A DNA stretch of 44,977 nt, from the IMG/VR virus record IMGVR_UViG_3300004633_000002, positions 1 to 44,977 of that record. One strand, written 5' to 3'. Positions 613 to 41,060 of the stretch are shown here, piece after piece. Each line of letters opens with the position of its first letter. The first letter of the stretch is position 1. The DNA is from a virus (Duplodnaviria; Caudoviricetes). Position numbers and translations under genes: made by a program. A model generated the notes under the pieces. That model was not told the DNA's origin. It did not search any database and saw nothing but the letters and a program-made list of their open reading frames with translations.

Positions 613-1907
613 AACCGAGTGTGCGCCAGCTTGCTGACGTGATCCAGTACTGCTGGCCGGACGTGGACATCATGCTCACCTTCGAGCGGTTGCACGAGAC
701 TGACAGTGGCGCCGTGCGCGGCATGCTGACGGTGGAGGCGACCGACCGGCGCAATGGCAACGCGGCGCACATCTGGTGGGCGGCGGTGTCGGTTACCACG
801 GCCGCCGACCGAAAGACGCTGACGGCCAAGCTGGACAAGGCCGCGCCTCGCGAGGGCGGCTGGGAGCAGGATGTAGACCGTTGTTTTCTGGATGTCTACC
901 AGCGGCATACCGCCGTGCCTGAGCCGCTGGTACTGAGCGGTGTCGAGGAGGCCGAGGAGGAAACGACGTACCTGATCGACCCGCTGCTGCCCGAAGGCCA
1001 GGTGTGCCTGCTGCTGGCCGACCAGGGCAGCACCAAGAGCTTCCTGATGCTGTACCTGGCGGCCTGCATCGCCCTGGGCCGCCGCACGATCTTCGGTGAG
1101 CCGAGCCGCTCGGGGCCAGTGGTGTTCTTCGACTGGGAGGTGGACGAGAAGACCGCCAACCGCCGCCTGACGTGGATCTGCCGAGGCCTGGGCAGCACGG
1201 TGCCCACGTCGCTGTACTACGTCAACATGTCCACGCGGGGGCGGCTGTTCGACCGAGTTCGCGACATGCGTCATATGGTCGACCGCATTGAACCGGTGCT
1301 GGTGGTGGTGGACTCGCTGACCTTCGCGACCGGCGCCGACCTGAACTCGGCCGAGTACGCGGCGCCGACGATGTCAGCGATTGGCTCGCTGGGCGAAGGC
1401 GTGACCAAGCTGGCCAGCGCTCACCCCAACAAGGCCAGCCGCAATGCCGCCGCCGACGACGATATCTCGGTCATTGGTTCGAGCCTGTTCGAGTACCGCG
1501 CCCGAGCTATCTGGCACATGCGGCGCGAGCAAGGCGCCAGGACGGCTCGCTTCGGTGTCAGCATGCGCCCCAAGAAGCCCTTCGACGGGCCACCCCTGAG
1601 GCCGCTTGCGTACTACATGGACTTCGACAACGTGGAGCACGCGGCCCGCTTCCAGAGCGCCAGGCTTGGCGACATGCCCAGCCTGGAGGCCAGCACGCTG
1701 CCAATCACGGCCCAGATCCGTCGCGCTCTGGCTCGCGGCGGCCGCCTGGATACCAACCAGCTAGCCGACCTGCTGGGCCAGCGCTCCGACGTGATCAAGC
1801 TGGAGTGCAACAGGATGTCCGATGTGTTCCCGTTTGCGCCCGGCGGCGGCCGAGGTAAACCCACCGTCTGGGAGCTTCGGGCAGAAACCGTATCTGATAC
1901 GGATTAG
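609..1907 (+). CDS. AAA_25/RepA-like replicative helicase/ATPase with C-terminal winged helix
   Basis: YLIDPLLPEG lead-in, variant Walker A ADQGSTKS, VVFFDWE, Walker B VVVDS, H-P-N-K and GS motifs typical of RecA-fold AAA_25 proteins. Confidence 0.8.
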   Translation: MKPSVRQLADVIQYCWPDVDIMLTFERLHETDSGAVRGMLTVEATDRRNGNAAHIWWAAVSVTTAADRKTLTAKLDKAAPREGGWEQDVDRCFLDVYQRHTAVPEPLVLSGVEEAEEETTYLIDPLLPEGQVCLLLADQGSTKSFLMLYLAACIALGRRTIFGEPSRSGPVVFFDWEVDEKTANRRLTWICRGLGSTVPTSLYYVNMSTRGRLFDRVRDMRHMVDRIEPVLVVVDSLTFATGADLNSAEYAAPTMSAIGSLGEGVTKLASAHPNKASRNAAADDDISVIGSSLFEYRARAIWHMRREQGARTARFGVSMRPKKPFDGPPLRPLAYYMDFDNVEHAARFQSARLGDMPSLEASTLPITAQIRRALARGGRLDTNQLADLLGQRSDVIKLECNRMSDVFPFAPGGGRGKPTVWELRAETVSDTD

Positions 1908-1993
1908 AAACGGTATCTGCCTTCGGCCCCCACCCCCCCTCTTAAAGAGAGGGGGGGCCGAACGGTTTGATACAGATACGGATATACGGTTTC
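1884..1993. promoter_or_regulatory. Putative replication origin: ~110-bp imperfect palindrome with CCGTAT(C)/(G)ATACGG iterons
   Basis: GAAACCGTAT...ATACGGTTTC, CCGTATCTG/CAGATACGG and TTCGGCCCC/GGGGCCGAA surround a central CCCCCTCTTAAAGAGAGGGGG, at the end of the helicase gene. Confidence 0.55.
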
Positions 1994-2008
1994 CGGAGGA
2001 GGTGAGAA

Positions 2009-2242
2009 GTGTTCATTGAGGTGCATCGCAAGAAGGACGGCTCGGTGTTTCTGCTGAACGCGGACGCCATCGAGTACGTCTCCGAGGGCATCATCGCCAT
2101 GCGCGGCGACACGATTGATCCGTACTACGTGCGGGAATCGCTTGCCGACCTGAGTCTGCTGCTCGATGCTCGGCGGTATACGCCACAACACAAAAGCCCC
2201 CCACCGGGTAGACCGGTGAGGGGCTTGAATGTGCGCGTCTAG
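2009..2242 (+). CDS. Small FlbD-like hypothetical protein
   Basis: FLLNADAIEYV...YYVRES pattern; strong GGAGGAGG RBS. Confidence 0.6.
   Translation: MFIEVHRKKDGSVFLLNADAIEYVSEGIIAMRGDTIDPYYVRESLADLSLLLDARRYTPQHKSPPPGRPVRGLNVRV
2192..2226 (-). terminator. Intrinsic terminator of the leftward operon (possibly bidirectional)
   Basis: AAGCCCC-CCACCGG/CCGGTGA-GGGGCTT stem with a U-tract on the minus strand, where convergent genes meet. Confidence 0.7.
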
Positions 2243-2568
2243 GCCTCGGCCTGGTTGAATGGAGCACCCCGCGCGGCGCGTGCCTTACGCACGTTCTCGA
2301 CGAGCTTGAGGTAGTGCTCCGGGTGTTGCTGGGCCATCTTGAACTGGCGCCTGGCCTCGCGCTCTGCGCGCATGGCGTTCATCTCGCGCACCAGGCGCTG
2401 GCGCGACTGGCTGATCGTCTCCAGGGCCAGGTCGACGCCCCTGGGCATGGGTGTACGACCCCGTTCCCAGTTGGCGATGGTGTTGGTATGGCAGCCCAGC
2501 AGTTCGGCCAGGTTAGCCTGGCTCAAGAACTGGGCCTTGCGCCACTTGTATAGCTCGCGTCCTTTCAC
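2239..2568 (-). CDS. XRE-family helix-turn-helix regulator
   Basis: LSQANLAELLGCHTNTIANWERG HTH; GTG start at 2568 overlaps the upstream stop (GTGA). Confidence 0.85.
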   Translation of the reverse strand: MKGRELYKWRKAQFLSQANLAELLGCHTNTIANWERGRTPMPRGVDLALETISQSRQRLVREMNAMRAEREARRQFKMAQQHPEHYLKLVENVRKARAARGAPFNQAEA

Positions 2569-2681
2569 GAGTGATCTCGCCTTCTGAAGAATGAGCGGAC
2601 GACGTGCACGATGCCTCCGAAGATGGCGATCCATGCGACCAGGCCGACCAGCAGGGCGGCGTAGGTGATCAGGTCGCTCAT
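2565..2681 (-). CDS. 38-aa single-TM membrane protein (not in ORF track)
   Basis: MSDLITYAALLVGLVAWIAIFGGIVHVVRSFFRRRDHS; ATGA/GTGA coupling on both sides. Confidence 0.7.
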   Translation of the reverse strand: MSDLITYAALLVGLVAWIAIFGGIVHVVRSFFRRRDHS

Positions 2682-2872
2682 TCGAGTGTGAGCGTGGCCA
2701 CCCTGACGGTGACCGGGCCTGAGGTGGCCTTGCGGCCCTTGTTGACCAGCGCTTTGCGCGCCAGCCAGCGGACGAGGTTCCAGTTGATGGCTACCTCGAC
2801 GGGTGTGCCGTTTTCGAGCACCCGCAGCTTGACTACGCCGGTCGGCCAGGCGCCGGCGTTACTGATGGTCAT
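2678..2872 (-). CDS. Hypothetical protein (64 aa)
   Basis: ATG at 2872 overlaps the upstream stop; GGAGG RBS. Confidence 0.7.
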   Translation of the reverse strand: MTISNAGAWPTGVVKLRVLENGTPVEVAINWNLVRWLARKALVNKGRKATSGPVTVRVATLTLE

Positions 2873-3150
2873 GACGTACCTCCGTAGACCCCAAAGAAGC
2901 GCCTGCAGGCGCAGCCTTCGACGCGGCAGGCCGTACCGGCTTCGCCGTGGTGGTAGTGGCGGCTCGGGCCGTGGCCGCACAGGCAGCGGCGCGGGTTGTC
3001 AGCAGGCGTTTCCTGCTGCATGTCCTGCCAGGCTGCTTTGAGCTTGGTCAGGACCACCAGCGCATCGTGGTTGTGGCCGCTGGTGACGTGCCAGATGGCG
3101 TCGTTGATGAGGTCGAATGCCCGCGCCTGGGCGTCGGTGGTAGTGGACAA
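2869..3150 (-). CDS. Hypothetical protein with C-terminal CxCxH..H..C..CxC zinc-binding motif
   Basis: CLCGHGPSRH...CRVEGCAC; TTG start preceded by the conserved AGGAGAGTAGTTCC RBS motif. Confidence 0.75.
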   Translation of the reverse strand: MSTTTDAQARAFDLINDAIWHVTSGHNHDALVVLTKLKAAWQDMQQETPADNPRRCLCGHGPSRHYHHGEAGTACRVEGCACRRFFGVYGGTS

Positions 3151-3195
3151 GGAACTACTCTCCTTTTCTGCGGAACAAGGTTAGTCCAACTGGAA

Positions 3196-4497
3196 CTAGG
3201 CGGCCGAGGCCTGGGCGATGAGTTCACCCAGGCCTCGGAACGCGGGGCTGATAACCGATTGGCCGAGGACCTCGTGAGCCTTCTTCTGGCTCAGGCCTTC
3301 GACCAGGGCGGGCGGGATGCCCTTGATGGCGGCGTGCTCGGCCGCCGTGAACAGGCGGGCCATGCCCGGCCGGGTCGGATGCGCCAGGCGCACGTCGCAC
3401 GAGCCACCCTTCTGGTAGCCACGCCGCAGCGTGGGGACGCTGGTGGCGTCGGCCTGCAGCACGCGGCGGCCTCGGCTGAAGCCGTTGCCGTTGGCCGCAT
3501 CGCGCGCGGCCTTGCGCTGCATGGCTGCCAGCGACTTCCAGCCACCAGCTTTGGCGTCGACGATCTCGCCTAGCGTGGTGTGCTCGCGGCGTGGCTGGAG
3601 GCTGGCCAGGTCGACGTCCAGGCCGCGTGTGACGGCCAGCAGGACCCAGCGCTTGCGGGCTTCGAGCGACCAGGCCGCGCCGTCGACGATGGCCTCGTGG
3701 ACCACGTATCCGAAGCGGCGCAGCCGGGCGCGGATGATGTTGGCGGTGGCGCTGGATGCGTACTCCGGCACGTTCTCCAGCAGGACCACGGCCGGCTGGG
3801 TGGCGCGGATGATTTCGAGGAAGCTCACGGCCAGGTCGGCCGTGGCGTCCTCGTCCTCCTGGCGTTTGAGGCCTTTTTTGGCCTTGCCCGCGCGGCTAGC
3901 TGAGACGCACGGCAGGCCGGCCTCGATGACGTCGACGGTGCCCAGGGCGTTCGGATCGACGTTGCCCAGGTCGTACTCGAAGGTGGTGCCGCCGGTTTGC
4001 AGCGGACCATGTTCGAGCGACTGGCCGAGGTAGCTGGAGTCGCGTTCGACCGCCCAGGCCATCTCAGCGTTGCCCAGGCCGCGCAGCAAAGCGTCGGAGG
4101 CTACGCCACCGCCGTGGCAGATCGACCCCAGGCGCAGGCTCTGACCGGTGGCCAGACGCGACTGGAGTCGACCCAGGCGCTCCTGGGTGGCCTGATCGAG
4201 GTGGTGCACGCTGACGTACACGGCGCCGGGTGTGAAGGCCACCTCGACGCGTTCGACGTCACCCAGTTCGCGGGTGATCAGGTCGACGACCGGTCGGCCC
4301 TGCTTGTGGCTGACTTTGTGGTCGCCGCTGGGCGTGAGCCGCAGGGTGAGCACGTCGCCGGCCACGCTTGACTGGTAGCGCACACCGGCGTCGAAGCCGA
4401 TGTCTCGCAGGCGTTTGCCTTCGAGCCACAGGCGTCGACCGCCTTTGTGGGATGACAGCCGGCGTTCGGCTGCATGTGGGAGAATGGCGGGTGCCAC
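3196..4497 (-). CDS. C5 cytosine DNA methyltransferase with extra N-terminal (SymE/AbrB-like) domain
   Basis: Motif I variant SICHGGG, motif IV GLPC, motif VI LLENV, motif VIII RKRW, motif X LGQSV. Confidence 0.88.
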   Translation of the reverse strand: MAPAILPHAAERRLSSHKGGRRLWLEGKRLRDIGFDAGVRYQSSVAGDVLTLRLTPSGDHKVSHKQGRPVVDLITRELGDVERVEVAFTPGAVYVSVHHLDQATQERLGRLQSRLATGQSLRLGSICHGGGVASDALLRGLGNAEMAWAVERDSSYLGQSLEHGPLQTGGTTFEYDLGNVDPNALGTVDVIEAGLPCVSASRAGKAKKGLKRQEDEDATADLAVSFLEIIRATQPAVVLLENVPEYASSATANIIRARLRRFGYVVHEAIVDGAAWSLEARKRWVLLAVTRGLDVDLASLQPRREHTTLGEIVDAKAGGWKSLAAMQRKAARDAANGNGFSRGRRVLQADATSVPTLRRGYQKGGSCDVRLAHPTRPGMARLFTAAEHAAIKGIPPALVEGLSQKKAHEVLGQSVISPAFRGLGELIAQASAA

Positions 4498-4582
4498 GGG
4501 AGACTACTCCTCCTGTTGGGCAATGGGCGGCCTGGTGCTTGATACGCCAGGCCGCCTGGTCTTGTGCTGCGGGGTGAACTCG

Positions 4583-4644
4583 GGCCGGGCTTGCCACCGG
4601 CCTGCCGCATTACGCCCAGGCCTATGCGGCCTGGGTGACTCTGC
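4583..4644 (-). ncRNA. Twister ribozyme A (P5-type permutation); predicted cleavage between 4612 and 4611
   Basis: GCA GA GUC [A-CCCAGGCC/GGCCUGGG-CG] UAA UGC G GC A GGCCGG UGGCAAGC CCGGCC; pseudoknot GUC/GGC; irregular P1 base. Confidence 0.8.
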
Positions 4645-5473
4645 GCTTGAACGACCGCAGCGAGCGGTCTTTTTTGAAGGTGAATCCGAAGCGATCCTCG
4701 ATGGCGATGAGTTCCTCCAGTAGCTCCGGTCGCTGGTCGGCGCCGACCTGCAGGTCCCCGTTGCAAGCGAGGACGCAGAACTGGCACGACAGCCGCTCAT
4801 TGCCGAACACGTACGCGACGTGCAGCGTCCATCCGTCCAGGGCGCCGGCGACGTCGCCGGCCTGGTACTGGCGGCGCCTGCGTCGAAGCTCGATCTCCGA
4901 GTGTCCGCAGGCTGCCAGGACGTCGCCTATCCGCCAGAACAGCAGCGGATGCCACGTCAGTGCAGTTCGCACGGTGTTGTCGATGCGACGCTTTTCCCAG
5001 GCCTTTTTCTTCGACCGGGCGGTCGACTCCTCGGCGCGGATGCCGACGGCGCATACCACGTTCGAGTAGCGTCGCAAGTAGGCGTCGATGGGATCGCGCT
5101 TCATGTCGCTGGTGCAAAAGCGATTCTGGCTATCCGACCAGGGTCGGGCTTGCTTGCCTTGGGCTTGCATGCGCTCACCCCGAGCGATCCAGTGGTCGAC
5201 CATGTCGCGTCCGTCCGAGCGGCGTACCACCACCAGCGGGATGCCGGCCTGGTCGGCCATCTTCTGGACGTGCCCCGGCGTCTGGCGCCACTCGATCCGA
5301 CCCAGGTCGGCGTGGATGGCGAACAGGTCACCCTTCCAGCCACGCTGCTTGTGCAGTGCGACCAGGGCGACCAGCATGGCCTGGGAGTCTTTGCCACCGC
5401 TGATCGAGATGGCGAGTGCCGCACCACCATCGAGTTGAGCCTCGATGGCCGGCGGGAGGGTTACTTGCTTCAC
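4622..5473 (-). CDS. Phosphoadenosine phosphosulfate (PAPS) reductase-family PP-loop protein (DndC-like family)
   Basis: SISGGKDS PP-loop, HADLG.EW, RFCTSDMK..PI, GIRAEES..R and RLSCQFC Fe-S motif. Confidence 0.85.
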   Translation of the reverse strand: MKQVTLPPAIEAQLDGGAALAISISGGKDSQAMLVALVALHKQRGWKGDLFAIHADLGRIEWRQTPGHVQKMADQAGIPLVVVRRSDGRDMVDHWIARGERMQAQGKQARPWSDSQNRFCTSDMKRDPIDAYLRRYSNVVCAVGIRAEESTARSKKKAWEKRRIDNTVRTALTWHPLLFWRIGDVLAACGHSEIELRRRRRQYQAGDVAGALDGWTLHVAYVFGNERLSCQFCVLACNGDLQVGADQRPELLEELIAIEDRFGFTFKKDRSLRSFKRRVTQAA

Positions 5474-5502
5474 TGACTACTCCAGTGAATGCGGGTGAGA
5501 TT

Positions 5503-5561
5503 GACCGGGCTTGTGACCGGTCTGCCGCATTACGCCAGGCCTGGCGGCCTGGTCACTCTGC
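5503..5561 (-). ncRNA. Twister ribozyme B (P5-type permutation); predicted cleavage between 5532 and 5531
   Basis: GCA GA GUG [A-CCAGGCC/GGCCUGG-CG] UAA UGC G GC A GACCGG UCACAAGC CCGGUC; pseudoknot GUG/CAC; irregular P1 base. Confidence 0.8.
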
Positions 5562-5894
5562 GTCTGGGCAGGAGTCGTAGTGAGCCACGATGGCGCCGTG
5601 GCTGGCGCATCCGTTGCAATGTGGAGCGAACTCCACTTCGGATTCCCATTTGCGAACCTGGGCGTCGACTCGACGAGCCAGCGACTTGCGCTTGAACCAG
5701 TCCGGGTCGGCCATCGACCGACCCTGGAGTTCCCAATAGATCAGGCGAGCGTTGTCTTCGAGTTGCTCGTAGGAGCCGCGCAGCGGACTGGGCTTGAATC
5801 CCAGGCGCTGCAGCCGGCTGACCACTTCGTACTCGCCCCAATCGTGTGCCCATTGGAGCCAGGCTTCGCAGACGTCGAATCGGTCGAAGAACAT
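5553..5894 (-). CDS. Hypothetical phage early protein (113 aa, MFFDRFDVCEAW...)
   Basis: ATG at 5894 in a TGATG overlap; C-terminal CxxC..H..C. Confidence 0.75.
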   Translation of the reverse strand: MFFDRFDVCEAWLQWAHDWGEYEVVSRLQRLGFKPSPLRGSYEQLEDNARLIYWELQGRSMADPDWFKRKSLARRVDAQVRKWESEVEFAPHCNGCASHGAIVAHYDSCPDAE

Positions 5895-6103
5895 CAGACC
5901 CCAGCCTCCGCGATCATCTCGTCGAAGATGGCGCAGTTGAGTTCGTGGAATCCGTAGGCGTCGGCCAGGCCGCAATCCGGGCAGGCCTGGCAGCCGCACA
6001 TGACGTTGCCTCGCCCGTCGACCGACCAGTCATCGTCTGAGCCGCATTCGAGGCAGGCGCCTGGAGTGACTGTGCGCCACCCGGTGAACACTGTTGTTGC
6101 CAT
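5894..6103 (-). CDS. Cys-rich small protein (69 aa)
   Basis: CLEC, CGCQACPDC and HELNC; ATG at 6103 after the conserved RBS hairpin. Confidence 0.75.
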   Translation of the reverse strand: MATTVFTGWRTVTPGACLECGSDDDWSVDGRGNVMCGCQACPDCGLADAYGFHELNCAIFDEMIAEAGV

Positions 6104-6132
6104 TGGAACTACTCTCCAATGCGGATGAAATT

Positions 6133-6188
6133 GACCGGGCTTGGAACCGGTCGGCCGCATTACACCGGCTGCGGCCGGTGTCCTCTGC
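6133..6188 (-). ncRNA. Twister ribozyme C (P5-type permutation); predicted cleavage between 6162 and 6161
   Basis: GCA GA GGA [CACCGGC/GCCGGUG] UAA UGC G GC C GACCGG UUCCAAGC CCGGUC; pseudoknot GGA/UCC. Confidence 0.92.
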
Positions 6189-6189
6189 G

Positions 6190-6486
6190 CTAGGCGATGA
6201 GCGTGCCCATCACCACGTATTCGTAGTCATCCATCCAGCGGACGAGCACGCCGCTGAAGAATGAGTCCGACTGGAAGGCATGCCAGCGACCAGGGGCGTT
6301 TGGTGGGACGTTCTCAGTGAAGTCGCCCAGGTCGTACGTGACACCCTTGAAGCGCACGAACTCGCGTTCGTCGAGTTCAGACTCGCTCAGGTAATCGAAC
6401 TGCTTGAGTTCGGCCGGGGTGAGTTCGTAGCCCCGTACGACTGGACGTGGCTGGTTGTTGGTAATGACGGTAATTTCGGTCGACAT
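6190..6486 (-). CDS. Hypothetical phage early protein (98 aa, MSTEITVITNNQPR...)
   Basis: YELT..E...FDYL, F.FKG..YDLGDF and SDSFFSGVLV pattern recalled from phage early regions; ATG at 6486 with GGGAG RBS. Confidence 0.8.
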   Translation of the reverse strand: MSTEITVITNNQPRPVVRGYELTPAELKQFDYLSESELDEREFVRFKGVTYDLGDFTENVPPNAPGRWHAFQSDSFFSGVLVRWMDDYEYVVMGTLIA

Positions 6487-6517
6487 CGTTCTACTCCCGA
6501 TGAATACGGTTTGAATT

Positions 6518-6573
6518 GGCTGGGCTTGCAACCAGCCTGCCGCATTTCACCGGCCGGGGCCGGTGTGCTCTGC
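6518..6573 (-). ncRNA. Twister ribozyme D (P5-type permutation, A^A site); predicted cleavage between 6547 and 6546
   Basis: GCA GA GCA [CACCGGC/GCCGGUG] AAA UGC G GC A GGCUGG UUGCAAGC CCAGCC; pseudoknot GCA/UGC. Confidence 0.88.
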
Positions 6574-6575
6574 GC

Positions 6576-6842
6576 TCAGTCCTCCCAGGATTCGCAATCG
6601 TCGAAGCAGGGTCCGCTGACTTCGATGTAGTCCCAGAACGTGCCGGGCAGCGACTCGCTCTCCCGAGCGATCCAGAAGCCCTGCTTGCGCGATCCCTTGA
6701 CTCGCTCGCCAGCGTCCCGGTACTGGTCGACGTGCCACATGGCACCGGCCAGTGCGGCCGACTTTGTCGGGTAGACGTCGTTGGAGTTCGGAATGTATCC
6801 GCCGGCCAGACCGGCGATGCAGTGAAAGTGCTTGGTGCTCAC
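6576..6842 (-). CDS. Hypothetical phage early protein (88 aa)
   Basis: GTG start after the AGGAGAGTAGTTCCT motif; stop lies 2 nt before twister D. Confidence 0.75.
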   Translation of the reverse strand: MSTKHFHCIAGLAGGYIPNSNDVYPTKSAALAGAMWHVDQYRDAGERVKGSRKQGFWIARESESLPGTFWDYIEVSGPCFDDCESWED

Positions 6843-6878
6843 TAGGAACTACTCTCCTTGAGTTGTGTTGGATGGGGA

Positions 6879-7139
6879 CTAGGCCAGCAATTCGACTGGC
6901 CAGAATCCAAAGTCCGACCCATCACCGGGGTGGGTACCGAAGTACGTGCCTTCTGGAGCCAGAGTGTCCAGGGCATCGATGAGTTCGTCGACGAGTTCGT
7001 CTGCCTCGGCCACGTTGTAGCCATAGGCTTCGTAGTCCTGGCGCAGCCGGTGGCTGGCTGGGAGTTCGGCCACGAAGGCCTGGATGAGGTGATCTGCCAA
7101 CAGAGTCCCGTGGCTCACGGTACCGATTGAGTACGTCAT
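6879..7139 (-). CDS. Acidic hypothetical phage early protein (86 aa)
   Basis: GTVSHGT...LI.AF and APEGTYFGTHPGDGSDFGFW motifs recalled from phage hypotheticals; conserved RBS motif. Confidence 0.8.
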   Translation of the reverse strand: MTYSIGTVSHGTLLADHLIQAFVAELPASHRLRQDYEAYGYNVAEADELVDELIDALDTLAPEGTYFGTHPGDGSDFGFWPVELLA

Positions 7140-7172
7140 TTGGAACTACTCTCCAAAATGCGGAGTAGGTTT

Positions 7173-7243
7173 GCCTGGGCTTGTGACCAGGCTGCCGCAT
7201 TACACCCGGCCAGCGTTTCTTCTGGACCATGGGTGCACTCTGC
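7173..7243 (-). ncRNA. Twister ribozyme E (P5-type permutation); predicted cleavage between 7202 and 7201
   Basis: GCA GA GUG [CACCC...GGGUG] UAA UGC G GC A GCCUGG UCACAAGC CCAGGC; pseudoknot GUG/CAC. Confidence 0.9.
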
Positions 7244-7741
7244 GAGTACGTGATTCAACCGGCAGGCATTGGACTGGTTACCAACGAGTTCTGGTGGGAC
7301 GTCCATTTCCTGGCTCGAATCCGGGCGACTAGCGCACTAGGACCATACTGGCGGATTCGATGCTGTCAGTGAACGAGCTTCTGAACTACACCCGGAGCCT
7401 TCCCCGTACTTGTGTTGTGTTGTGTGAGTCCCCCTGATCCAATCAGCATTAGGCTTGTCTGGCCTGCGACACCGGACTTGGTTCGGAGCCCGCCGTCCTC
7501 CCCTGGCCACCCACGTTTCAACTTCGTGGTACTGGTTTGGGACTTGGCGCGGTCGATGGTGTAGCTGATGCAGTCCGTCAGGGGACTACGTTTGCCAGCG
7601 TTCGGTCAGCGACTAGGGCCAGGTTCAGATCCTGGGCTTACCGTCTTGGCCACTGCTTACTTGCGTATTCGCTCAGCGTCTCTGCCCGGGGCGTCCGGTG
7701 AGGATCGAGTCCTTTGTGGTGTCGGTCGTTTCCCGCCGACA
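7244..7741 (-). ncRNA. Putative ~500-nt multi-domain structured leader/ncRNA
   Basis: No credible ORF; long-range helices 7578-7587/7427-7437 and 7405-7410/7245-7250 separated by a CAACA-repeat linker (7411-7426); 5' hairpin at 7720-7741. Confidence 0.55.
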
Positions 7742-7746
7742 ACGTC

Positions 7747-7775
7747 AGTAAACCACAACGATTGTGGGTTGTCTA
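7747..7775 (-). promoter_or_regulatory. Sigma70-like promoter of the leftward operon with a palindromic operator in the spacer
   Basis: -35 TAGACA (7775-7770), 17-bp spacer, TGn-TTTACT extended -10 (7752-7747); CCACAA-N3-TTGTGG palindrome at 7753-7767; AT-rich upstream. Confidence 0.6.
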
Positions 7776-7924
7776 TAAACAAGGGACTAGCGAATTGCTA
7801 AATATTTGTAAACGCCCTGGGCACTTCGAGCGCTCTGCGGCCGGGACACCAGCGTCAGATGCGAGCGAGTTCGGGAGGCGACGTCGACTGGGAGGCCGGC
7901 TGGACGTCCAGGGCTGACAGGCCA

Positions 7925-8310
7925 GGCATCGACGCAGCGGAAAGCGACAAAGCGGAAAACCTATCGCATCGAAAAACCTACGCATCGACGCAGGCAGACC
8001 GGCGACTGGTCCGTATGCGCGACACCCTGGTCAGGAGGTATGCCGGCCTGGTCAGCGCTGAGCCTGGGTGGTGTAGGTATCCAGCGCTGGTATCAGGATG
8101 TCCAGGCCAAGGTCAGCGCTGGGTGAGCCTGAGATGCAGCGCTTGATCCCTGGGAAGTGGAAAGCGTGAGCCAACGCAGCAGCACGCCCCAAAGTCGCTC
8201 AAAGGAAGCGCGCGACGTACACCCAGCGAAGCTGGGGGTACGGGTGCCACCATCGCCCCTCACGCTCGCGGCCCAGGAGAACCTATACCCGATCCCCACA
8301 AAAATTCTGT
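7925..8310. repeat. Repeat-rich non-coding region upstream of terS (candidate packaging/terminus region)
   Basis: GCATCGA x3, AAAACCTA x2, CAGCGCT x4 (8053, 8082, 8114, 8137), then GGGGGTACGGG...CCCCACAAAAATT. Confidence 0.45.
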
Positions 8311-8379
8311 ATCGCGGCGAATGGGCGTCTCAACTCCAGTTGGTGTTGAGACTTGACGCTTGCGGTCATAATTGGGAGC

Positions 8380-8871
8380 ATGCCGACGAAGACGCCCCAG
8401 CCGCGTGTGTACAAGAAGCGCAATCTGCAGCAGCCGTGGGAAGCCGAACCGATAGCCCCGCCGCCCAGGACGCGGCGGATTCCGGAGGGGCAATTGCAGC
8501 GGCGCTATCTGGAGGCGCTGCCGAAGTTCTTCACGGTATCGGCGGCGCTGACGTCGGCGGGTGCGGACGCCAGCCAGTTACGCCGCTGGCGTGAGACGGA
8601 CGGGGCGTTCTTAGTGGCCGAGCAGGACGCCCGCAATGCGCTAGCCGACAAGCTCGAAGCGGAGGCGGTGCGGCGTGCGTTCAAGGGGGTGCGCGTGCCG
8701 GTGTATCAGGGTGGGCTGCTGGCCGGGCACATGACCCAGTACTCGGACCAGTTGCTGGTGCTGCTGCTCAAGGCCATGCGCCCCGAGAAGTTCAGGGAGC
8801 GCGCCGAGATCCAGATGACCCAGCCCATAGTGAAGGTGGTGGCCGGCTTCGACCCGTCTCAAGCACTCTAA
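8380..8871 (+). CDS. terS: Terminase small subunit
   Basis: D.LE.EA.RRA..G...PVYQ.G...YSD.LL..LLKA.RPEKFRER pattern; directly upstream of terL. Confidence 0.8.
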   Translation: MPTKTPQPRVYKKRNLQQPWEAEPIAPPPRTRRIPEGQLQRRYLEALPKFFTVSAALTSAGADASQLRRWRETDGAFLVAEQDARNALADKLEAEAVRRAFKGVRVPVYQGGLLAGHMTQYSDQLLVLLLKAMRPEKFRERAEIQMTQPIVKVVAGFDPSQAL

Positions 8872-10468: not shown

Positions 10469-11167
10469 GTGGTTGTTTCGGCGCAGCACTTCCGCGAGGT
10501 GACCAACGGCTACGAGCAGACCTCCTCGGGCTTGTGGACCCACAAGGGTGGCCTGCAGGCCGGCGCACTGCGGGCGACCGGGCCGCTTGGCCTGATCAGC
10601 ACCAGCGGACCGGGCGTGAATGTGCAGTACGACCCGTCCGGCAACGCCGGCTACATCCAGGCCTACGACTACTCCACGGGTGCCTGGAAGGACCTCGTCA
10701 TCGCCGCCCGCAACATGAACATCTCGACCACGGGCGGCACCCTCAGCTTGCCGGCCGGTTCGGTGAGCACCGCCGCGATTGCGGCGGGAGCCGTCACGGG
10801 CGTGGTGAGTTACCAGATCGCCAGCGGTTTTGTGGCTTCCACCGCCGCCTGGACCGAAACCGACGTGCGCGCCACCGGCACATTCACCGGCTCCGGCATG
10901 GTGCTGGTGTTCTGGAGTACGTGCTTCAGCAACCCCAACACCGGGGGTGGCACGTATATCGGCGTCGGCATCGATGGCGCCGCCAACACGGTCGGCCTGG
11001 TCGGCCATTCGGGGGGTTCGCTCATGCAATTCGGGGGCTGCTTCACCACGACCGGCATCACTGCCGGTAGCCATCGGGTGAGCATCTTCGTGTATCCCAC
11101 CGCTGGTGCCACCACCCTCAGCACTCAGGCCTACTCGACTGTCGCGGCACTGGAGTTGAGGCGATGA
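10469..11167 (+). CDS. Putative virion beta-rich fibre/spike-like protein
   Basis: G/T/S-rich, GSVSTAAIAAGAVT repeat-like unit, C-terminal beta-sandwich-like pattern. Confidence 0.5.
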   Translation: MVVSAQHFREVTNGYEQTSSGLWTHKGGLQAGALRATGPLGLISTSGPGVNVQYDPSGNAGYIQAYDYSTGAWKDLVIAARNMNISTTGGTLSLPAGSVSTAAIAAGAVTGVVSYQIASGFVASTAAWTETDVRATGTFTGSGMVLVFWSTCFSNPNTGGGTYIGVGIDGAANTVGLVGHSGGSLMQFGGCFTTTGITAGSHRVSIFVYPTAGATTLSTQAYSTVAALELRR

Positions 11168-13335
11168 GCATGCACTCCGCGCCACCCGCCGCCTGGTTCA
11201 AAAACTCCAGCGAGTCGCAGCAGGACGCCATGCAGCGGGCCACCCTGGAGCTTGCCCAGGAACTCCAGAACCAGTTCGCCGGGCGCGACGAGTTGTATCG
11301 CGACATCGACGCGGTGCTGTTTGGCGACCTACCCGTGGAGATCCCCGAGGCGTACCGCAAGACCGCCGTCGAGGTCCGCTCGCCGCTGGCCATGCACATC
11401 GCCAGCACCGTCACCGCCGCCCTGTCGGTCAACCCGATGACCACCGTCTTCAAGCCCATCGGCTTTGGCGACATCTACCAGCAGAACTCGACGCTGCGGG
11501 AGAAGTTCTTCGAGGCGAGTTGGAGCCGCCAGGAGCAGGAGGCCCGCCGCCAACTCCTGCGGCTGTTCATGTGGAGCATGGCCGTCAAGGGCGAGGGCAT
11601 CATCAAGACCCTGGAGCGCACCCGCGCGGCCTGGAGCGCGTACGACGAAAAGAGCGCCTCACTCCAGAAGCTGCTCGACGAGGAGCGCGACTACGACCAG
11701 CAGGCCAAAGACGTGATGTACGACAAGCAGACCGAGGAGTACAAGCTGGCCCTGCCGTACCCCATCGCGTCCACCGACGTGCCGCCCGAAACCTTCTACT
11801 ACACCAAGAACGAAAACGGCTTCACGGCGTGTGTCGAGATCAAGGAACTGCCGTATCTGGAGGCCCTGGAGCGCTTCGGGGCCGGGCTCAACTCCAGCGG
11901 CGAGGTGGTCGCGCCGGACACATGGAGCGGCATGGACCCCAGGTCCATGGAGTTGGCCCGCGCCGAGTGGAGCAGCATGATGCGCTCGGCCTCCGGTTAC
12001 AGCGGCACTACCCAGACCATCCGCTGCGTCGAGGCCTGGGACTACCAGACCCAGGTCATCCTGCTGAGCGGCCCCGGCCAGCGCAACAAGGGCCAGGGCT
12101 CGCTGGGCAGCGCCACGTTGTGCCGCGTGCTCAAGCACTCCTACGGCGACCCGATCCTGAAGACCCTGAAGGGGCCGTACTTCCACGCCCTGGGCGTGAC
12201 CACCGCCAGCCGCTTACCGGAGCGCGCCGGACTGTCGATCCTGTTCGGCTATTTGCGGCTGTTCCCGCTGCTGGACTCGCTGCTCACTGCCCAGGGCCAG
12301 AGCGCGTACATGACCATGTACCCGGCCTTCAAGAAGACCACTCCACCGGGCGTGCTGCCGGGCCTGCCGGCCATGCCCTATGGCACCGACTCGCGCGAGG
12401 CAAGCTCCAGGGCCTCGACCATCGAGCCGGGCAAGCTGTTCCCGTTCGACATCGCGCCCATCGACCAGCCGCGCCAGGGCGTCGACGCCGACAAGCTCAT
12501 CGAGAACATCCAGAAGATGATGGAGTGGGCCCTGCCCAGCGTGGTCCAGGGCATGGTCGCCAGCGACCAGAGCGGCTACGCCCTCAACCAGGCCGCCTAC
12601 CTGGCGCGCTTGGGCTGGGACCCCATCGTCAGTAACGCCGAGGTGGCCCTGGGCGAGCGCATCGGCTTCGAGTCATGGCTGATCGAAAACCGTATCGGAG
12701 AGAAGGTATATGCCTGGGGTGAGCAGGAGGCTAAAAAGGGGCGCAAGACCATCGGCGGCATGGTCAAGGCGACCTGGCTGGGCGTCGGGCCGGACGACCT
12801 CAAGGGCGTGCATCGCTACGAATGCAAACTCGCGCCGTCCACTCCGAGTAACGAGATCATCGAAACTCGGGCGCTGGGCGAGAAGATGCAACTCAAGCTC
12901 ATCACCTACGAAGACGCCGTAGAGCGGGCCGGCGCCAACCCCGACGAAGTTGAGAAATCGTGGCTGTTGCACGATTTGAAGAATAGCCAGGAGATCCAGC
13001 AGGAACTCAAGAACAGCATCTTCCAGAAGATCGCCACGATCCGCTCGGCCAGGATGGCGCAAGCCGGCCTTACGCCAGACATGCTCGGCGGACCACCACC
13101 CGGTGCGCCTCCCCCCGGCCCACCGGGAGCGGCTGCCACGGGCGTACCGGGGGGTACACCCGGTGCGCCTCCAGCACCCGGTCCTGGCGGCATGCCCCCC
13201 AACCCGGTCCCGTCTCCGGGCCAGGGCCTGCCCATCGCGCCTCCACCTCCAGGCGGGGGAGGCCCGGCGATGCCGCCAGGTGGTGTGCCCGGCACACCCG
13301 TGGTGCCCATGCCCCGAGGGCCGCTGCCGGTCTAG
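11164..13335 (+). CDS. Portal (head-tail connector) protein with Pro/Gly-rich C-terminal tail
   Basis: Size and position after terL; helical pattern with VQG...SGYALNQ motif; PG-rich last ~90 aa. Confidence 0.75.
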   Translation: MSMHSAPPAAWFKNSSESQQDAMQRATLELAQELQNQFAGRDELYRDIDAVLFGDLPVEIPEAYRKTAVEVRSPLAMHIASTVTAALSVNPMTTVFKPIGFGDIYQQNSTLREKFFEASWSRQEQEARRQLLRLFMWSMAVKGEGIIKTLERTRAAWSAYDEKSASLQKLLDEERDYDQQAKDVMYDKQTEEYKLALPYPIASTDVPPETFYYTKNENGFTACVEIKELPYLEALERFGAGLNSSGEVVAPDTWSGMDPRSMELARAEWSSMMRSASGYSGTTQTIRCVEAWDYQTQVILLSGPGQRNKGQGSLGSATLCRVLKHSYGDPILKTLKGPYFHALGVTTASRLPERAGLSILFGYLRLFPLLDSLLTAQGQSAYMTMYPAFKKTTPPGVLPGLPAMPYGTDSREASSRASTIEPGKLFPFDIAPIDQPRQGVDADKLIENIQKMMEWALPSVVQGMVASDQSGYALNQAAYLARLGWDPIVSNAEVALGERIGFESWLIENRIGEKVYAWGEQEAKKGRKTIGGMVKATWLGVGPDDLKGVHRYECKLAPSTPSNEIIETRALGEKMQLKLITYEDAVERAGANPDEVEKSWLLHDLKNSQEIQQELKNSIFQKIATIRSARMAQAGLTPDMLGGPPPGAPPPGPPGAAATGVPGGTPGAPPAPGPGGMPPNPVPSPGQGLPIAPPPPGGGGPAMPPGGVPGTPVVPMPRGPLPV

Positions 13336-13827: not shown

Positions 13828-15009
13828 ATGATGACCTACGCCGATCTGCTCGCGAGCGCCGACGCCCGCGCGTGGCAGAACCAGGCCAACACCCAGCAGA
13901 ACAGCGCCGCCGCCAACGCCCTGGCCCAGGCCCAGTTCGACTGGCAAAAGCAACTCGGCACGGCCGGCCAGACGGGCATGTGGAACGGCGCCTGGAACAT
14001 GCCCACCCAGCAGTACTTCGCCAACACGTTTGGCGCCTGGGGCGCGCCGACCACCGGCCAGCAGACGCTGCAGGGCCAGCAGACCGCCGCCGACATCGCC
14101 CAGAACTGGTCGCAGATGTTCGGCCAGTACTACGCGCCGGGCACCGCGCCAGCCCAGGGCGCCCAGACCCAGGCCGCCCAGCAGGCCGGATTGGCCAACG
14201 CCGCCACCGTGGCCGGCCTGACCGGCATGTACAACGCGCCAGGCTCTACGGGTCCCGGCACCCAGACCCTGGCCGGCCAGCAGCAGGCCTGGCAGCAGGG
14301 CTTCCAGCAGCAGCAGTTCGCCGCCCAGCAGGCCCAACTCCAGCAGCAGAACGCCCAGAGCTACCTGCAGCTACTCAGCAACTTGCGCGGCCCGGCCGAC
14401 TGGGCCAAGTACCAGCAGGTGCTCGGCTCCACGCCAGGCGGCATGCGCGACCTGGCCGCCGCCGCCATGGGCCAGTACATCCCCGGCGGCGGGGCGACCA
14501 CCGGCGTGCAGCCCCAGGCGGCCAACTTGAACTCGATGTACGCCCAGATCCAGGGCTCGCCCAACACCTACGCCTACCCCCAGCAACAGCAGTACGCGTA
14601 CACCACCCAGGCCCAGCCGCAGGGCGGCAACATGGGCTGGAACTCGACTCCAGCCGCCGGCAACATGGGCTACGGCGAGCAACGCGGCGCCAGCGGCGAC
14701 ATCAACGCCCAGGGCCAGTTCGTCGCCAACCAGGCGTATGGCCAGCGGCCCGGCACGGGCACCCCCCAGGAGGCGACCGGCAACGGCACCAACGTGTGGG
14801 GCGGCCAGCAGAACCAGTACAACCTGCCCGCGCCCAACCAGATCGCCAGCCAATCGTGGAACAACATGGCCCCCAGCCAGCAGCAGATGCTGCTCGGCCA
14901 GTACGAGAGCCAGGGCTGGGATAAGGGCGACGTACAGGCGCTCTACAACCAGAGCCTGCCCAAGTACGGCACCAACAACGCGAGCGCGGGCACCTGGCGA
15001 CTCCAGTGA
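13828..15009 (+). CDS. Gln/Gly/Asn-rich internal virion (pilot/ejection) protein
   Basis: Very Q-rich low-complexity composition with repeated QTLAGQQ and GxTGxYN/WN units. Confidence 0.6.
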   Translation: MMTYADLLASADARAWQNQANTQQNSAAANALAQAQFDWQKQLGTAGQTGMWNGAWNMPTQQYFANTFGAWGAPTTGQQTLQGQQTAADIAQNWSQMFGQYYAPGTAPAQGAQTQAAQQAGLANAATVAGLTGMYNAPGSTGPGTQTLAGQQQAWQQGFQQQQFAAQQAQLQQQNAQSYLQLLSNLRGPADWAKYQQVLGSTPGGMRDLAAAAMGQYIPGGGATTGVQPQAANLNSMYAQIQGSPNTYAYPQQQQYAYTTQAQPQGGNMGWNSTPAAGNMGYGEQRGASGDINAQGQFVANQAYGQRPGTGTPQEATGNGTNVWGGQQNQYNLPAPNQIASQSWNNMAPSQQQMLLGQYESQGWDKGDVQALYNQSLPKYGTNNASAGTWRLQ

Positions 15010-18000
15010 CGATGCTGCCGGACATCGATCAGCAGGACTGGGACACCTACCAGCAGCAGAATCTGCAGCAGCAGATTCAAGCCAAGATCGATTCGTTCGG
15101 CCTGGACCGCATGATTGGCGACAAGATCAGCGAACTCAACGCGCTCAACGCGCCGCCGCTGGCTCCCAAGCCTGAGCCGCCGCCCGCGCCAGAGCCTGAG
15201 CCTCCCACCCCGGCTCCTGAGGCGCCATCCGTCTCGACGCCACCCGAGGAGCCGACGGCCCCTCCACCTATTACGTCACCGACTCTCACACCCGATTTCC
15301 AAAACTCGGCGCCGGTCCTGCAGGCCCCGGCCGGCGCCCCGCCGCAGGCCAGGACCTCGATCCCGCCGCCGCTACCCAGTACGGCACCGGCGCCAGCCCC
15401 TCCTGCGCCAACGCCGTCGTTTACGCCGCCGCCGCCATCGCGCGATGACTGGTTCGGCAACGCCCTGAACGCCGTGCAGGCCTCGGGTGGCGACGTCCAG
15501 AGCTTCGCCCAGAGTTACCTGAGTGCCAGCGGCCCCGATAGCTACGGCAACGCCCTCAACGCGGCGCAGAACGCAGGCGCCGACGTGCAGCAGTTCTCTA
15601 CCGCCGTGGCCCCGCCACCGCCACCCCCGACTCCCCCTGCGGCGCAACCTGCTTCCCTCCCAGGAGTCTCCTCGGCCGCGTCGCAGGGGGCCACTTCAGT
15701 CAGCGGGGTTCCAGACTGGCTGTCGTCGCTGATCGCCCAGAACGCCCCAGCCGAGCTAGCTTCAGACCCCGATTTCATCCGAACCGTAGCAGCCGGGGCC
15801 AAAGCCGAGAGCGGCTGGGACCCAAACCGTATCCAGAACGGTTTCACGCTGGGCTCGAACGCGGGCGCTCGCGGGCTGTTCCAGTTCGACATGGGCGGCA
15901 TGGGCGCGGGCATGGACGAGCAGGCGCTGCTGGGCGACCAGGGCGCCGCGTACCAGGCCTCCAAGATCGTGCCGCTGTACGCCAAGGCGTACATGAGCGC
16001 ACCCCAGGGCTTGAGCGGCGCCGACAAGGCTAGCTGGGTAGCTGGTCAGGCCGAGCGCCCGCTGGGCTTTACCGACCCCGCCTCGGCCGCCCGCCGCAAC
16101 TACGCGAGTGCCTACAACGAAATAGGCGCCGGGCCTGGCGCCACGCCCCAGGACTTGCTGGCCAGGACCGGTGGCTGGGCGCAGCAGGCCGCGAACGCGC
16201 CGCAGATCAGCCAGTTCGGTGACAAGCAGCTATCCGCCGACGAGGCCTACGCCGCGTGCGGGCCTGCGGCGGCGGTGCGCTTCGCCCAGATGTACGGCCG
16301 CAACCCGAGCCTGCGCGAGGCCACCGACCTGGCCGCCTCGGTGGGCTGGACGAGCGCCCAGGGCATGGCCGGCCTGGGCTCCGAGAAGGCGCTCATGGAC
16401 AAGCTGGGGGTGCCGACGCACGTTGTCGGGGGCGACTGGAACGCCATCGCCAGCGAGGCCTCCACGGGTAACCCGGTCACCATCAGCACGCCTGGCCACT
16501 ACTTCTTTGCCGACGGCTATGACCCGAACTCTGGCGCGTTTCACGTCGGACAGAGCGGCCTGGACCTGAAGGGCGGCAGCGAGTGGATGACGCCGCAGCA
16601 GATGGAAGGTCGCATGGGCGCGCTCCAGGGGGCGCTGTTCGCGGACAACCCGCGCGTACCGGCGCCGTCGACGGCCGACCAGACTAGCGCCCCGCAGAGC
16701 TTCCTGGGGCGCGTCAAGGACACCATCGGCGCGAGCTTCAGCGGCCTGGGCTCGACGACCCGCGACATCGGTCGCGCCCTGGGCATCGACACCTCCAGCG
16801 ACCCGACCGTGCAGGCTCTGGACCAGGCCGTGACGACCTCGGCGCAGCCCCCCGACACCGGCTTCAGGCGGGTGGCACCGGGCATGGTCGGCGGCCCGCC
16901 CGACTACACCGACTTCGGCAAGGCCGCCGCCCTGAGTGGCGACCAGAACCTGGGGGACGCCCTGGGCAAGACGGCCTACGGCGCCCTGGAGGCCTTCGGC
17001 AAATCGCTGCCCGACGTGAGCGACATGCCTGGCTTCCAGGCACCGCCAGCCAACACCCCGCTGGGCAAGGTGGTGCGCGGCACGCCGATCAGCCAGCTAC
17101 CCCCGGCCGAGCAGGCCCAGGCCGTCATGCAGTGGCGGCAGCAGGCAGCCCAGGCCAGCGAGGAGGCTACCCAGGCCATCAACCCGGCTCGCGACGTGCC
17201 GCTGCTGGGCGGCCTGATCAACCAGTCGACGAACCCCGAGAACTGGCTCGCCATGGGTGGGGCTGGGCGCGCCGCGCGTGCCGTCGAAGGCCTGGCCGGG
17301 ACGGGCATCGCGGCCAAGCTGGCGGGCGCTGCCACCGAGGGCGGGCTGCTGGGCGCACAACTCGCCTCGCAACAACCGGGCGCCACCGCCGAGGACATCG
17401 CCCTGGGTGCCGCCTCGGGTACGGCCCTCGGTACAGCCATCCCTGGCGCAGGCTACGCCGTCAAGGAGGGTGCGCCGCGCGTCGCCAGCGCCGCCCTGGG
17501 CGCCCTGGACCGCCTGTCGCCGCCGGACGTCGCGTACGCCTCCACCCGGCGACCGATGCCGACCGACGAGACGCCGTATTCCGCCCAGTCGCTGATGGAC
17601 GCCTACGACAACGTCACGCCCGCCCGCATCGCCTCGATCAATCAGCGTGTCGTCGACAACCTGGCTCCCCGGCTAGCTGGCGCGCGGGGCGACATCGACG
17701 CGGCCAATGCCCTCATCCAGCAGGTGTGGGACTACGGCAAGAGCATGCTCGATCAGTCGCGCATGACCACCACCGGACTGAGCGCCAAGGCGGCGGCTGC
17801 GCTGGCGGATGGCCAGGGCTTCACCAACAAGCTCAACATGGCCGGCACCGCACTCGATTCGGCCGAGGCCACCATGCGCCAGGTCACCACTACCGACCGC
17901 CCCCTGTCGATTGAGGACGCCCTGAACTTCGTACAGCGCGAGGCGCACGCTGACAACATGGCCCTCGGCTCCACCCAGGCCTTGGACGAGGCGGGCATCC

Positions 18001-40905: not shown

Positions 40906-41060
40906 CAGAGGACTACTCCCTCGGGTGCCAGTGCCGCGCCCTGGGCCGGTGAGACGGCGCCAGGGCATTTCACTGCCCCTTGATTTAGCTTCCGCCTGAT
41001 TCGGGCGGGAGTCGGATGATAAGGCGTGAATCCGCCTGATACCAATATTGACCCGAGGTA

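Follow-up and report, generated by a model that had tools for sequence, protein, structure and literature searches.

One passage of a review (PMC6765202) treats it as an open question why self-cleaving ribozymes occur in bacteria and phages. The stretch of viral DNA analysed here (IMG/VR record IMGVR_UViG_3300004633_000002; 44,977 bases, hereafter the window) raises this question in a concrete form, as five ribozymes of the twister class lie at the gene boundaries of one operon. What may they do for the genes that they separate? The window corresponds to one complete circular phage contig with a 100-nt terminal repeat. Pfam and PHROG scans revealed terminase, major capsid, tail-fibre-like proteins, RecT and integrase, and the presence of virion genes together with an integrase identifies the phage as temperate. 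The ribozyme-bearing operon is located on the minus strand, divergent from the terminase genes, and comprises five small genes of unknown function (g1 to g5), a gene with a PAPS-reductase domain, a C5 DNA methyltransferase gene, three small genes and a helix-turn-helix (HTH) gene. We favour, with some reserve, the reading that the twisters cut the nascent operon transcript and that a standard head then gives the next gene a uniform, insulated and translation-ready 5' end. In sequence, this cassette head consists of a twister, a CCGCAUU-like strand, a hairpin over the ribosome-binding site and the start codon, in that order.

Five intact twister ribozymes in one phage operon

An Rfam scan of all 44,977 bases returned exactly five matches at the gathering level (score 37.6; E-values 5e-10 to 2e-6), all of which are Twister-P5 (RF02684) and map to the minus strand:

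7173..7244, minus strand: Twister-P5 copy 1 (Rfam 7244-7175, 50.2 bits), with a long P1; predicted cut 7202^7201
6518..6574, minus strand: Twister-P5 copy 2 (Rfam 6574-6520, 50.7 bits), with A at N-1; predicted cut 6547^6546
6133..6189, minus strand: Twister-P5 copy 3 (Rfam 6189-6135, 59.7 bits); predicted cut 6162^6161
5503..5562, minus strand: Twister-P5 copy 4 (Rfam 5562-5505, 58.9 bits); predicted cut 5532^5531
4583..4645, minus strand: Twister-P5 copy 5 (Rfam 4645-4585, 45.5 bits); predicted cut 4612^4611

A preliminary description of this DNA had placed five permuted twisters at these locations, and the covariance-model search recovered each of them. The downstream ends given there (7173, 6518, 6133, 5503 and 4583) stand, with P4 extended, but the starts had to be moved: P2 holds one more pair, and each copy therefore begins one base earlier, in CGCA. 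RF02684 is matched over its full length (positions 1-58 of 58) in the order P2'-GA-T1-P1-cut-P2-T2-P4, which is the P5-type permutation that had been proposed. In all copies, P1 has a predicted energy of -12 to -18.5 kcal/mol, P2 spans 4 bp and P4 spans 6 bp. The pseudoknot T1 is paired in five of five copies by exactly the triplets claimed earlier (GUG/CAC, GCA/UGC, GGA/UCC, GUG/CAC and GUC/GGC in copies 1-5), and T2 is GC/GC in each, again as described.

Covariation of the fold, which had been read from the five copies, was evaluated in 31 copies from the window phage and seven related loci; one copy of locus L211, featuring a P1 of about 80 nt, and the copy of L232 were left out. Core positions are paired in 99.4% of cells, compared with 87.1% in shuffled and 24-35% in slid controls, and P1, P2 and P4 are paired in 98-100% of cells. 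Two-sided, compensatory changes occur at 9 of 15 core pairs, in P2 (one pair), T1, T2 and P4, in agreement with the earlier claim. The copies are related to one another and these counts are consequently inflated; the fold is nevertheless the published one. Catalytic-core features (the G of the conserved GA, the A at +1 of the scissile bond and the L4 U/AA) are invariant in 31/31 copies. The published fold and the roles of the core residues are those given in the relevant part of PMC5408937, where the P5 helix is also described as optional. This helix lies outside the Rfam RF02684 model, and it was rejected for the copies considered here, in which flank pairing reaches at most 4 bp (32/32) and mostly at most 2 bp (26/32); the preliminary description, too, had seen no obvious P5. 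Residue numbers presumably carry over to the P5 permutation as we mapped them, from the Rfam consensus and general familiarity with the family. From 1900 to 8600, Rfam gave no further ribozyme or RNA family at E-values up to 10, chance matches below threshold aside. On sequence grounds, the five elements are thus confirmed as intact twister ribozymes with complete core features, and knowledge of the family makes it very probable that they self-cleave.

The idea that T1 is a "barcode" against the mixing of neighbouring halves does not hold in general: L208, L211 and L218 each use one code throughout (GUG/CAC). P1 is often far longer in the ribozyme that opens the operon than in later copies, possibly through a regulatory insertion; examples are the window (7210-7235), L211 (7683-7772, about 80 nt), L218 (8733-8775) and L233 (2749-2791).

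The first bases of the 3' products (7201, 6546, 6161, 5531 and 4611) match the cut positions predicted in the preliminary description, and the spacings between cuts equal the piece sizes proposed there (655, 385, 630 and 920 nt). Reading frames upstream of the four internal copies stop 29, 28, 21 and 10 nt ahead of the predicted cuts; two of the four enter the ribozyme and end on a stop within it. The predicted released 5' untranslated regions (UTRs), computed as cut minus start coordinates, measure 62, 60, 58, 58 and 114 nt. That the operon would be split at gene boundaries holds insofar as every cut follows a stop. The split is incomplete, however, as two of the five predicted pieces carry two genes each and the last about five, and a ribozyme is missing from two clear intergenic junctions (6879/6842 and 3196/3150).

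Sequence elements between the cut and the start codon

About 10 nt past P4, each copy is followed by a short strand complementary to the AAUGCGG that cleavage would free:

7157..7163, minus strand: CCGCAUU strand of copy 1
6509-6503, minus strand: CCGUAUU strand of copy 2, with one G-U wobble
6124-6118, minus strand: CCGCAUU strand of copy 3, overlapping the g4 start hairpin
5494-5488, minus strand: CCGCAUU strand of copy 4
4572-4568, minus strand: CCGCA strand of copy 5

At least five Watson-Crick pairs are formed in 23 of 30 copies of the clade, compared with 4.9 expected from shuffles and with 3/30 upstream flanks. G-U substitutions in the strand preserve the pairing. Pairing of the strand with the freed 5' end is predicted at -8.6 kcal/mol, compared with -4.9 kcal/mol for the upstream CGCA. 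When the released UTRs were folded, pseudoknots ignored, the strand closed the 5' end of copies 1, 2 and 4 with a probability above 0.9. In the unrelated phage L073 (near 1986, minus strand), a twister whose 5' end reads AACGCGG is accompanied by a matching altered strand, a single compensatory example.

The second element is a hairpin of the form stem-G-AGUAG-U-stem, which covers the Shine-Dalgarno (SD) sequence at six operon starts and at the likely integrase start; at g3, the hairpin is a variant interrupted by an internal mismatch:

7139..7157, minus strand: start hairpin of g1, G-AGUAG-U loop over the ribosome-binding site
6844..6858, minus strand: start hairpin of g2, at a junction without ribozyme; the L233 homolog has one
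6502-6484, minus strand: variant start hairpin of g3, within 6484..6509
6121-6101, minus strand: start hairpin of g4, pairing the AUG of g4
5489-5469, minus strand: start hairpin of the PAPS-reductase-like gene
4499..4513, minus strand: start hairpin of the methyltransferase gene
3149..3175, minus strand: ribozyme-less junction with a CCGCAG remnant and a start hairpin (3165-3149); in L208 a twister precedes the homologous gene
40908..40922, minus strand: start hairpin at the likely integrase start, outside the operon

Exact copies of this hairpin in the whole genome all map to the minus strand (7/7), before operon genes or the integrase, and shuffling the operon 300 times produced none, compared with the six observed there. 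Relatives have AGUAG, AGACA, GGCAA, AGAAG or AGCAA as the loop sequence. Among 44 distinct hairpins, selected solely for loop, SD-like GG and start codon, with no stem required, stem positions 1-3 are paired in 44, 40 and 41 cases and the fourth in 30, by several types of pair. The hairpin at the integrase start hints that integrase and accessory genes may be under a common control of translation.

The two elements are coupled. Strands occur at 24 of the 32 hairpin-bearing starts that are preceded by a twister, compared with 1 of 22 other hairpin-bearing starts; the sole exception, at window position 3160, is a junction whose counterpart in L208 carries a twister. Starts preceded by a hammerhead ribozyme lack the strand (0/5). 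In copies 1, 3 and 4, the strand overlaps the base of the start hairpin, and capture of the 5' end is predicted to change the hairpin energy from -7.2 to -4.2, from -8.5 to -2.6 and from -11.1 to -5.7 kcal/mol, respectively.

Ribozymes in related phages and the possible role of the cut

A terminase search identified 35 related loci, 20 of which were scanned with Rfam along with L239 and L264 (22 in total). Twisters were found in 8 of the 22: six each in L233 and L211, five in L208, four in L218, three in L264 and one each in L209, L217 and L232. A pattern search added one long-P1 twister to the six Rfam matches of L211. Type II hammerheads were found in three loci, namely L213 (three, two of which are below gathering), L215 (one) and L239 (one, just below gathering).

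Twisters and hammerheads replace each other at orthologous junctions in four cases. For instance, the junction after the PAPS gene features a twister in the window and in L209 but a type II hammerhead in L239 (36.0 bits, E 0.0012). L239 keeps a decayed 5' half of the twister as the end of its PAPS gene, with the hammerhead behind it, and shares a 100%-identical 104-aa protein with L209. The other cases concern three pairs of homologous genes (82.6%, 51.8% and 41.7% identity), in which the member in L211 or L217 has a twister ahead of it and the member in L213 or L215 a hammerhead. This exchange of unrelated folds suggests that self-cleavage is selected and is the strongest indirect evidence in that direction; a class swap at matching junctions implies that the cut itself may be what matters. 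The presence of a ribozyme also varies, as g2 and g8 have none in the window while their homologs in L233 and L208, respectively, do.

The genes flanked by the ribozymes are not constant among relatives. With L233, the terminase (TerL) of which is 98% identical over 181 aa, the window has no more than g2, g4 and part of g5 in common; with L218 (93% over 247 aa), the overlap is limited to the methyltransferase and the HTH gene. Several blocks of homology between the window and its relatives end in a ribozyme; one ends inside g5.

Two ribozyme-less loci have short repeated motifs of their own in the same operon, four copies each (L219, 5937-8714; L228, 6215-8135). Among the five largest repeat families per region, the ribozyme-less relatives revealed no long intergenic family besides start-proximal motifs. 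Four other viral contigs (L003, L013, L059 and L070) carry two to five clustered Twister-P5 copies, several with CCGCA after P4.

According to the favoured reading, a single transcript, which the preliminary description took to be an early one, would run from about 7740 to a terminator at about 2190. Each twister would cut N^AAUGCGG, leaving a 2',3'-cyclic phosphate on the upstream and a 5'-OH on the downstream product. CCGCAUU would then pair with the freed AAUGCGG, displacing the upstream product, which would be held only by P2 and T1, and sealing the new 5' end in a stem. At copies 1, 3 and 4, capture would strip pairs from the base of the start hairpin, and translation would rise after cutting. 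The outcome would be a leader RNA of about 540 nt plus mRNAs that are turned over separately. We propose that, with the same head on every gene, genes would be exchangeable between phages without retuning of expression. A more specific version is put forward only tentatively: a ribozyme of either class, a strand capturing the 5' end and a ribosome-binding-site hairpin loosened by this capture may form a modular cassette head that acts as a cleavage-activated translation switch and insulator and makes accessory genes readily exchangeable, the first ribozyme freeing an uncatalogued structured RNA of about 540 nt.

Several observations weigh against this account. Eleven of the 22 related loci have no Rfam ribozyme match, although some may not span the whole operon, and L225 has start hairpins without ribozymes; the operon therefore works uncut in some relatives. 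Predicted capture of the 5' end, pseudoknots again ignored, is weak for copies 3 (0.36) and 5 (0.47), and at copy 2 capture hardly loosens the hairpin (-5.3 to -4.7 kcal/mol). The strand is much rarer in other viral twisters (27 of 113, with 9 expected; five members of this set are clade copies fetched again) than in the clade. Moreover, the copies descend from one another, and counts and p-values overstate their independence. The putative promoter (7775-7747) was not called by a consensus promoter scan. Stabilisation of mRNA by a 5'-OH end plus a stem is general background knowledge. Conversely, cleavage of the glmS ribozyme leads to degradation, as stated in the corresponding passage of PMC6765202.

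This precedent is the starting point of a different, rather unlikely explanation, in which the ribozymes would cut in order to shorten mRNA life, restricting accessory proteins to a brief pulse or silencing leak-through in the lysogen, with hairpins dampening translation. As glmS cleavage triggers decay (PMC6765202, same passage), the start hairpins cover the SD sequence and often the start codon too, and the phage is temperate, with the same hairpin at its integrase, the idea has some appeal. Nonetheless, a conserved strand sealing the new 5' end suits protection better, and each piece keeps a complete reading frame. The strand itself might instead be a decoy partner of P2, an anti-ribozyme competing with co-transcriptional folding, and ribosomes covering the 5' half would make the cut fraction tunable. 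It does mimic the upstream CGCA without the catalytic GA and pairs more strongly (-8.6 vs -4.9 kcal/mol), and in 4/4 internal copies the upstream frame stops 1-2 nt before, or inside, the 5' half. We regard a decoy as slightly less probable still, given that transcription of the ribozyme is complete about 10 nt before the strand emerges, that the core is strictly selected, that the strand also follows copy 1, which no gene precedes, and that hammerhead slots lack the strand (0/5).

The turnover of cargo even between close relatives (L233, L218), the homology blocks that end in a ribozyme and the RecT encoded by the phage would also fit repeats that are kept mainly as DNA anchors for the exchange of cassettes by recombination, or that spread selfishly, cleavage being incidental. 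Compensatory changes, however, keep the RNA structure while lowering DNA identity, replacement by a hammerhead removes homology yet keeps self-cleavage, and one homology block ends inside g5; an explanation of this kind is improbable. Least probable of all is that a host RtcB-type ligase would join the ends of the pieces between ribozymes, yielding stable circular mRNAs. The end chemistry (5'-OH and cyclic phosphate) fits on established knowledge, and neighbouring window copies differ in T1, so that a re-joined hybrid would be mismatched. On the other hand, all copies in L208, L211 and L218 share GUG/CAC, no RtcB or RNA ligase was found among 57 open reading frames (ORFs) scanned with Pfam, and the 5' end is predicted to be sequestered. 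For hammerhead arrays, the pertinent part of Perreault et al. (PMC3088659) reports that no circles were detected.

Leader, neighbouring genes and comparison with known systems

The region upstream of the first ribozyme contains two features:

7747..7775, minus strand: putative promoter with TAGACA, a 17-nt spacer and an extended -10-like TTTACT, recognised by eye and by homology to L208
7202..7740, minus strand: leader of about 540 nt without a clear gene; longest closed ORF 57 aa

The promoter region is 77% like that of L208 over 86 nt, and the L208 sequence is closer to consensus at the -10 position. A perfect 6-3-6 palindrome in the spacer (7767-7753), of which the genome holds no second copy, is a possible repressor operator. 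A protein-coding function for the leader is not supported. A 280-nt part of it (7690-7410, minus strand) has homologs in L233 (2965-3240; 70-71% like the window) and L213 (4075-4370); searches for further homologs returned only these and the window's own record. The consensus fold of the three sequences contains 52 pairs, 20 of which changed on both sides. Single-sequence folding is unremarkable (minimum free energy z-score of only 0.24), and Rfam gave no match to the leader at E-values up to 10. As a lead only, the segment 7410-7690 is probably a conserved, uncatalogued structured RNA. In it, a local partner competes with the long-range helix AGUCCCCU/AGGGGGACU.

Upstream of the first ribozyme, the window and each of the six relatives examined contain 440-700 nt in which no ORF exceeds 65 aa. 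Other leader families occupy the same slot in L208 (7952-8420), L218 (8733-9170), L211 (7683-8325) and L264 (8003-8700), again over 440-700 nt. Otherwise unlike leaders share short blocks, such as GGCUAGUUCAAG and CCGACCAAGAGGUC, and the leaders of L208 and L218 show 17 two-sided changes among 104 predicted pairs.

The genes of the operon and its putative end are as follows:

6879..7139, minus strand: g1, 86 aa, function unknown, phrog_29605; 71% homolog in L211
6576..6842, minus strand: g2, 88 aa, function unknown; 88% homolog in L233
6190..6486, minus strand: g3, 98 aa, function unknown; weak match to phrog_1845
6103-5894, minus strand: g4, 69 aa, Cys-rich; the g4/g5 block (5553..6103) has homologs in L233 and L211
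5894-5553, minus strand: g5, 113 aa; its stop is the UGA belonging to ribozyme copy 4
4622..5473, minus strand: PAPS-reductase-domain gene, 283 aa, PF01507 (E 9e-14) and phrog_424; stop inside the P1 loop of copy 5
3196..4497, minus strand: C5 cytosine DNA methyltransferase gene, 433 aa, PF00145 (E 3.5e-18)
2239..3150, minus strand: three small genes and the terminal XRE-type HTH gene (2568-2239)
2194..2226, minus strand: intrinsic-terminator-like hairpin, 14 pairs followed by a U run

The 14-pair hairpin at 2226-2194 is the putative terminator that closes the operon. Database matches to g1 are limited to unnamed viral clusters, and g3 has no relative among the viral contigs searched and no usable Atlas match. 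Homologs of the XRE-type HTH gene (2239-2568, minus strand) are present in 16 of 25 related loci searched, a number that includes some contigs fetched twice, whatever the cargo. An extra strong hairpin (4520-4560, minus strand) lies between copy 5 and the methyltransferase start; L208 and L218 have similar ones ahead of their methyltransferase genes. Elsewhere in the phage, a virion-region protein of 2,330 aa (15006-21998) gave a weak peptidase C39-like match and two unnamed PHROG matches, and the likely portal gene (11164-13335) has no family match. Concerning the host, capsid matches in the genome collection reach at most 41% identity, and the best match to a cultured phage is 40.8%; a DNA search of cultured phages gave only four short matches. 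No RNA run is listed among the public runs that contain this DNA, which carries no evidence on expression. In contigs from four DNA runs, two of which may be the source of this DNA, short joins between ribozyme positions derive from twisters of other organisms and were discarded.

Ribozyme arrays as such are not new in kind, since hammerhead arrays in prophages were published in 2011. As described in the portion of Perreault et al. 2011 concerned (PMC3088659), multiple hammerheads flank single prophage genes of varying identity, three triple arrays cleave in vitro and one in E. coli, and processing of polycistronic RNA into gene-length mRNAs was proposed. The present locus resembles those arrays in having several ribozymes around single genes or short blocks of a temperate phage, with varying cargo. 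It differs in that the window features twisters, hammerheads being confined to the relatives L213, L215 and L239; in that five to seven copies are present, compared with the three-copy arrays tested by Perreault et al.; and in the standard cassette head and the exchange of twisters for hammerheads at orthologous junctions. A passage of the review PMC6765202 (2019) notes that twisters and hammerheads share gene contexts and that processing of polycistrons has been suggested, leaving the purpose undefined, and the available part of Felletti 2016 makes no mention of polycistrons or phages. What the locus adds, judged from its sequence, would be class swaps combined with cargo turnover, the complementary strand, the covarying hairpin over the ribosome-binding site and, probably, a structured leader RNA. 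The strand, the start hairpins, the hammerhead swaps and the conservation of the leader had escaped the preliminary description. The strand, the coupled hairpin and the swap at the level of junctions had no match in the literature searched, where they were not targeted by name.

The clade provides natural controls, with the same junction carrying a twister, a hammerhead or nothing, and the strand and start hairpin are concrete, mutable elements that predict an effect of the cut on the downstream gene. The locus is thus a good test bed for the purpose of phage ribozymes. If the favoured reading is true, the cassette head would be nature's equivalent of engineered ribozyme insulators and would provide a mechanism by which phage accessory genes can be modular. 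RiboJ-type insulators are engineered, hammerhead-based devices in which a ribozyme and a hairpin upstream of the ribosome-binding site standardise the 5' end of the mRNA; the phage heads, in contrast, are natural and repeated, and their hairpin covers the ribosome-binding site.

The remaining likenesses are partial. The window copies share P1, P2, P4, T1, T2, the conserved GA and AA and the order of the permutation with the Twister-P5 class (RF02684), but they are without the P5 helix, are present five times in one operon and are accompanied by a strand and a start hairpin outside the Rfam model. Like the theta ribozymes of gut phages, as portrayed in part of PMC10879173, they are phage-encoded small ribozymes, here predicted to process phage transcripts; theta ribozymes, however, are hepatitis delta virus-like and sit beside tRNAs, whereas the window twisters sit between protein-coding genes. 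The closest parallel to the start hairpin is the Start Associated Sequence (SAS) of Cluster K mycobacteriophages, the 13-bp consensus of which, GGGATAGGAGCCC, is given in the section of PMC3203893 concerned. The layout is the same, in that a 13-nt repeat of GG-N7-CC-like form, the SAS, overlaps the SD sequence before the starts of non-structural genes in one orientation. In contrast, the stem-G-AGUAG-U-stem of the window departs from the GGGATAGGAGCCC consensus and is analogous to the SAS, not a member of it; it is a covarying RNA stem with a G-U closing pair and a 5-nt loop, coupled to ribozymes.

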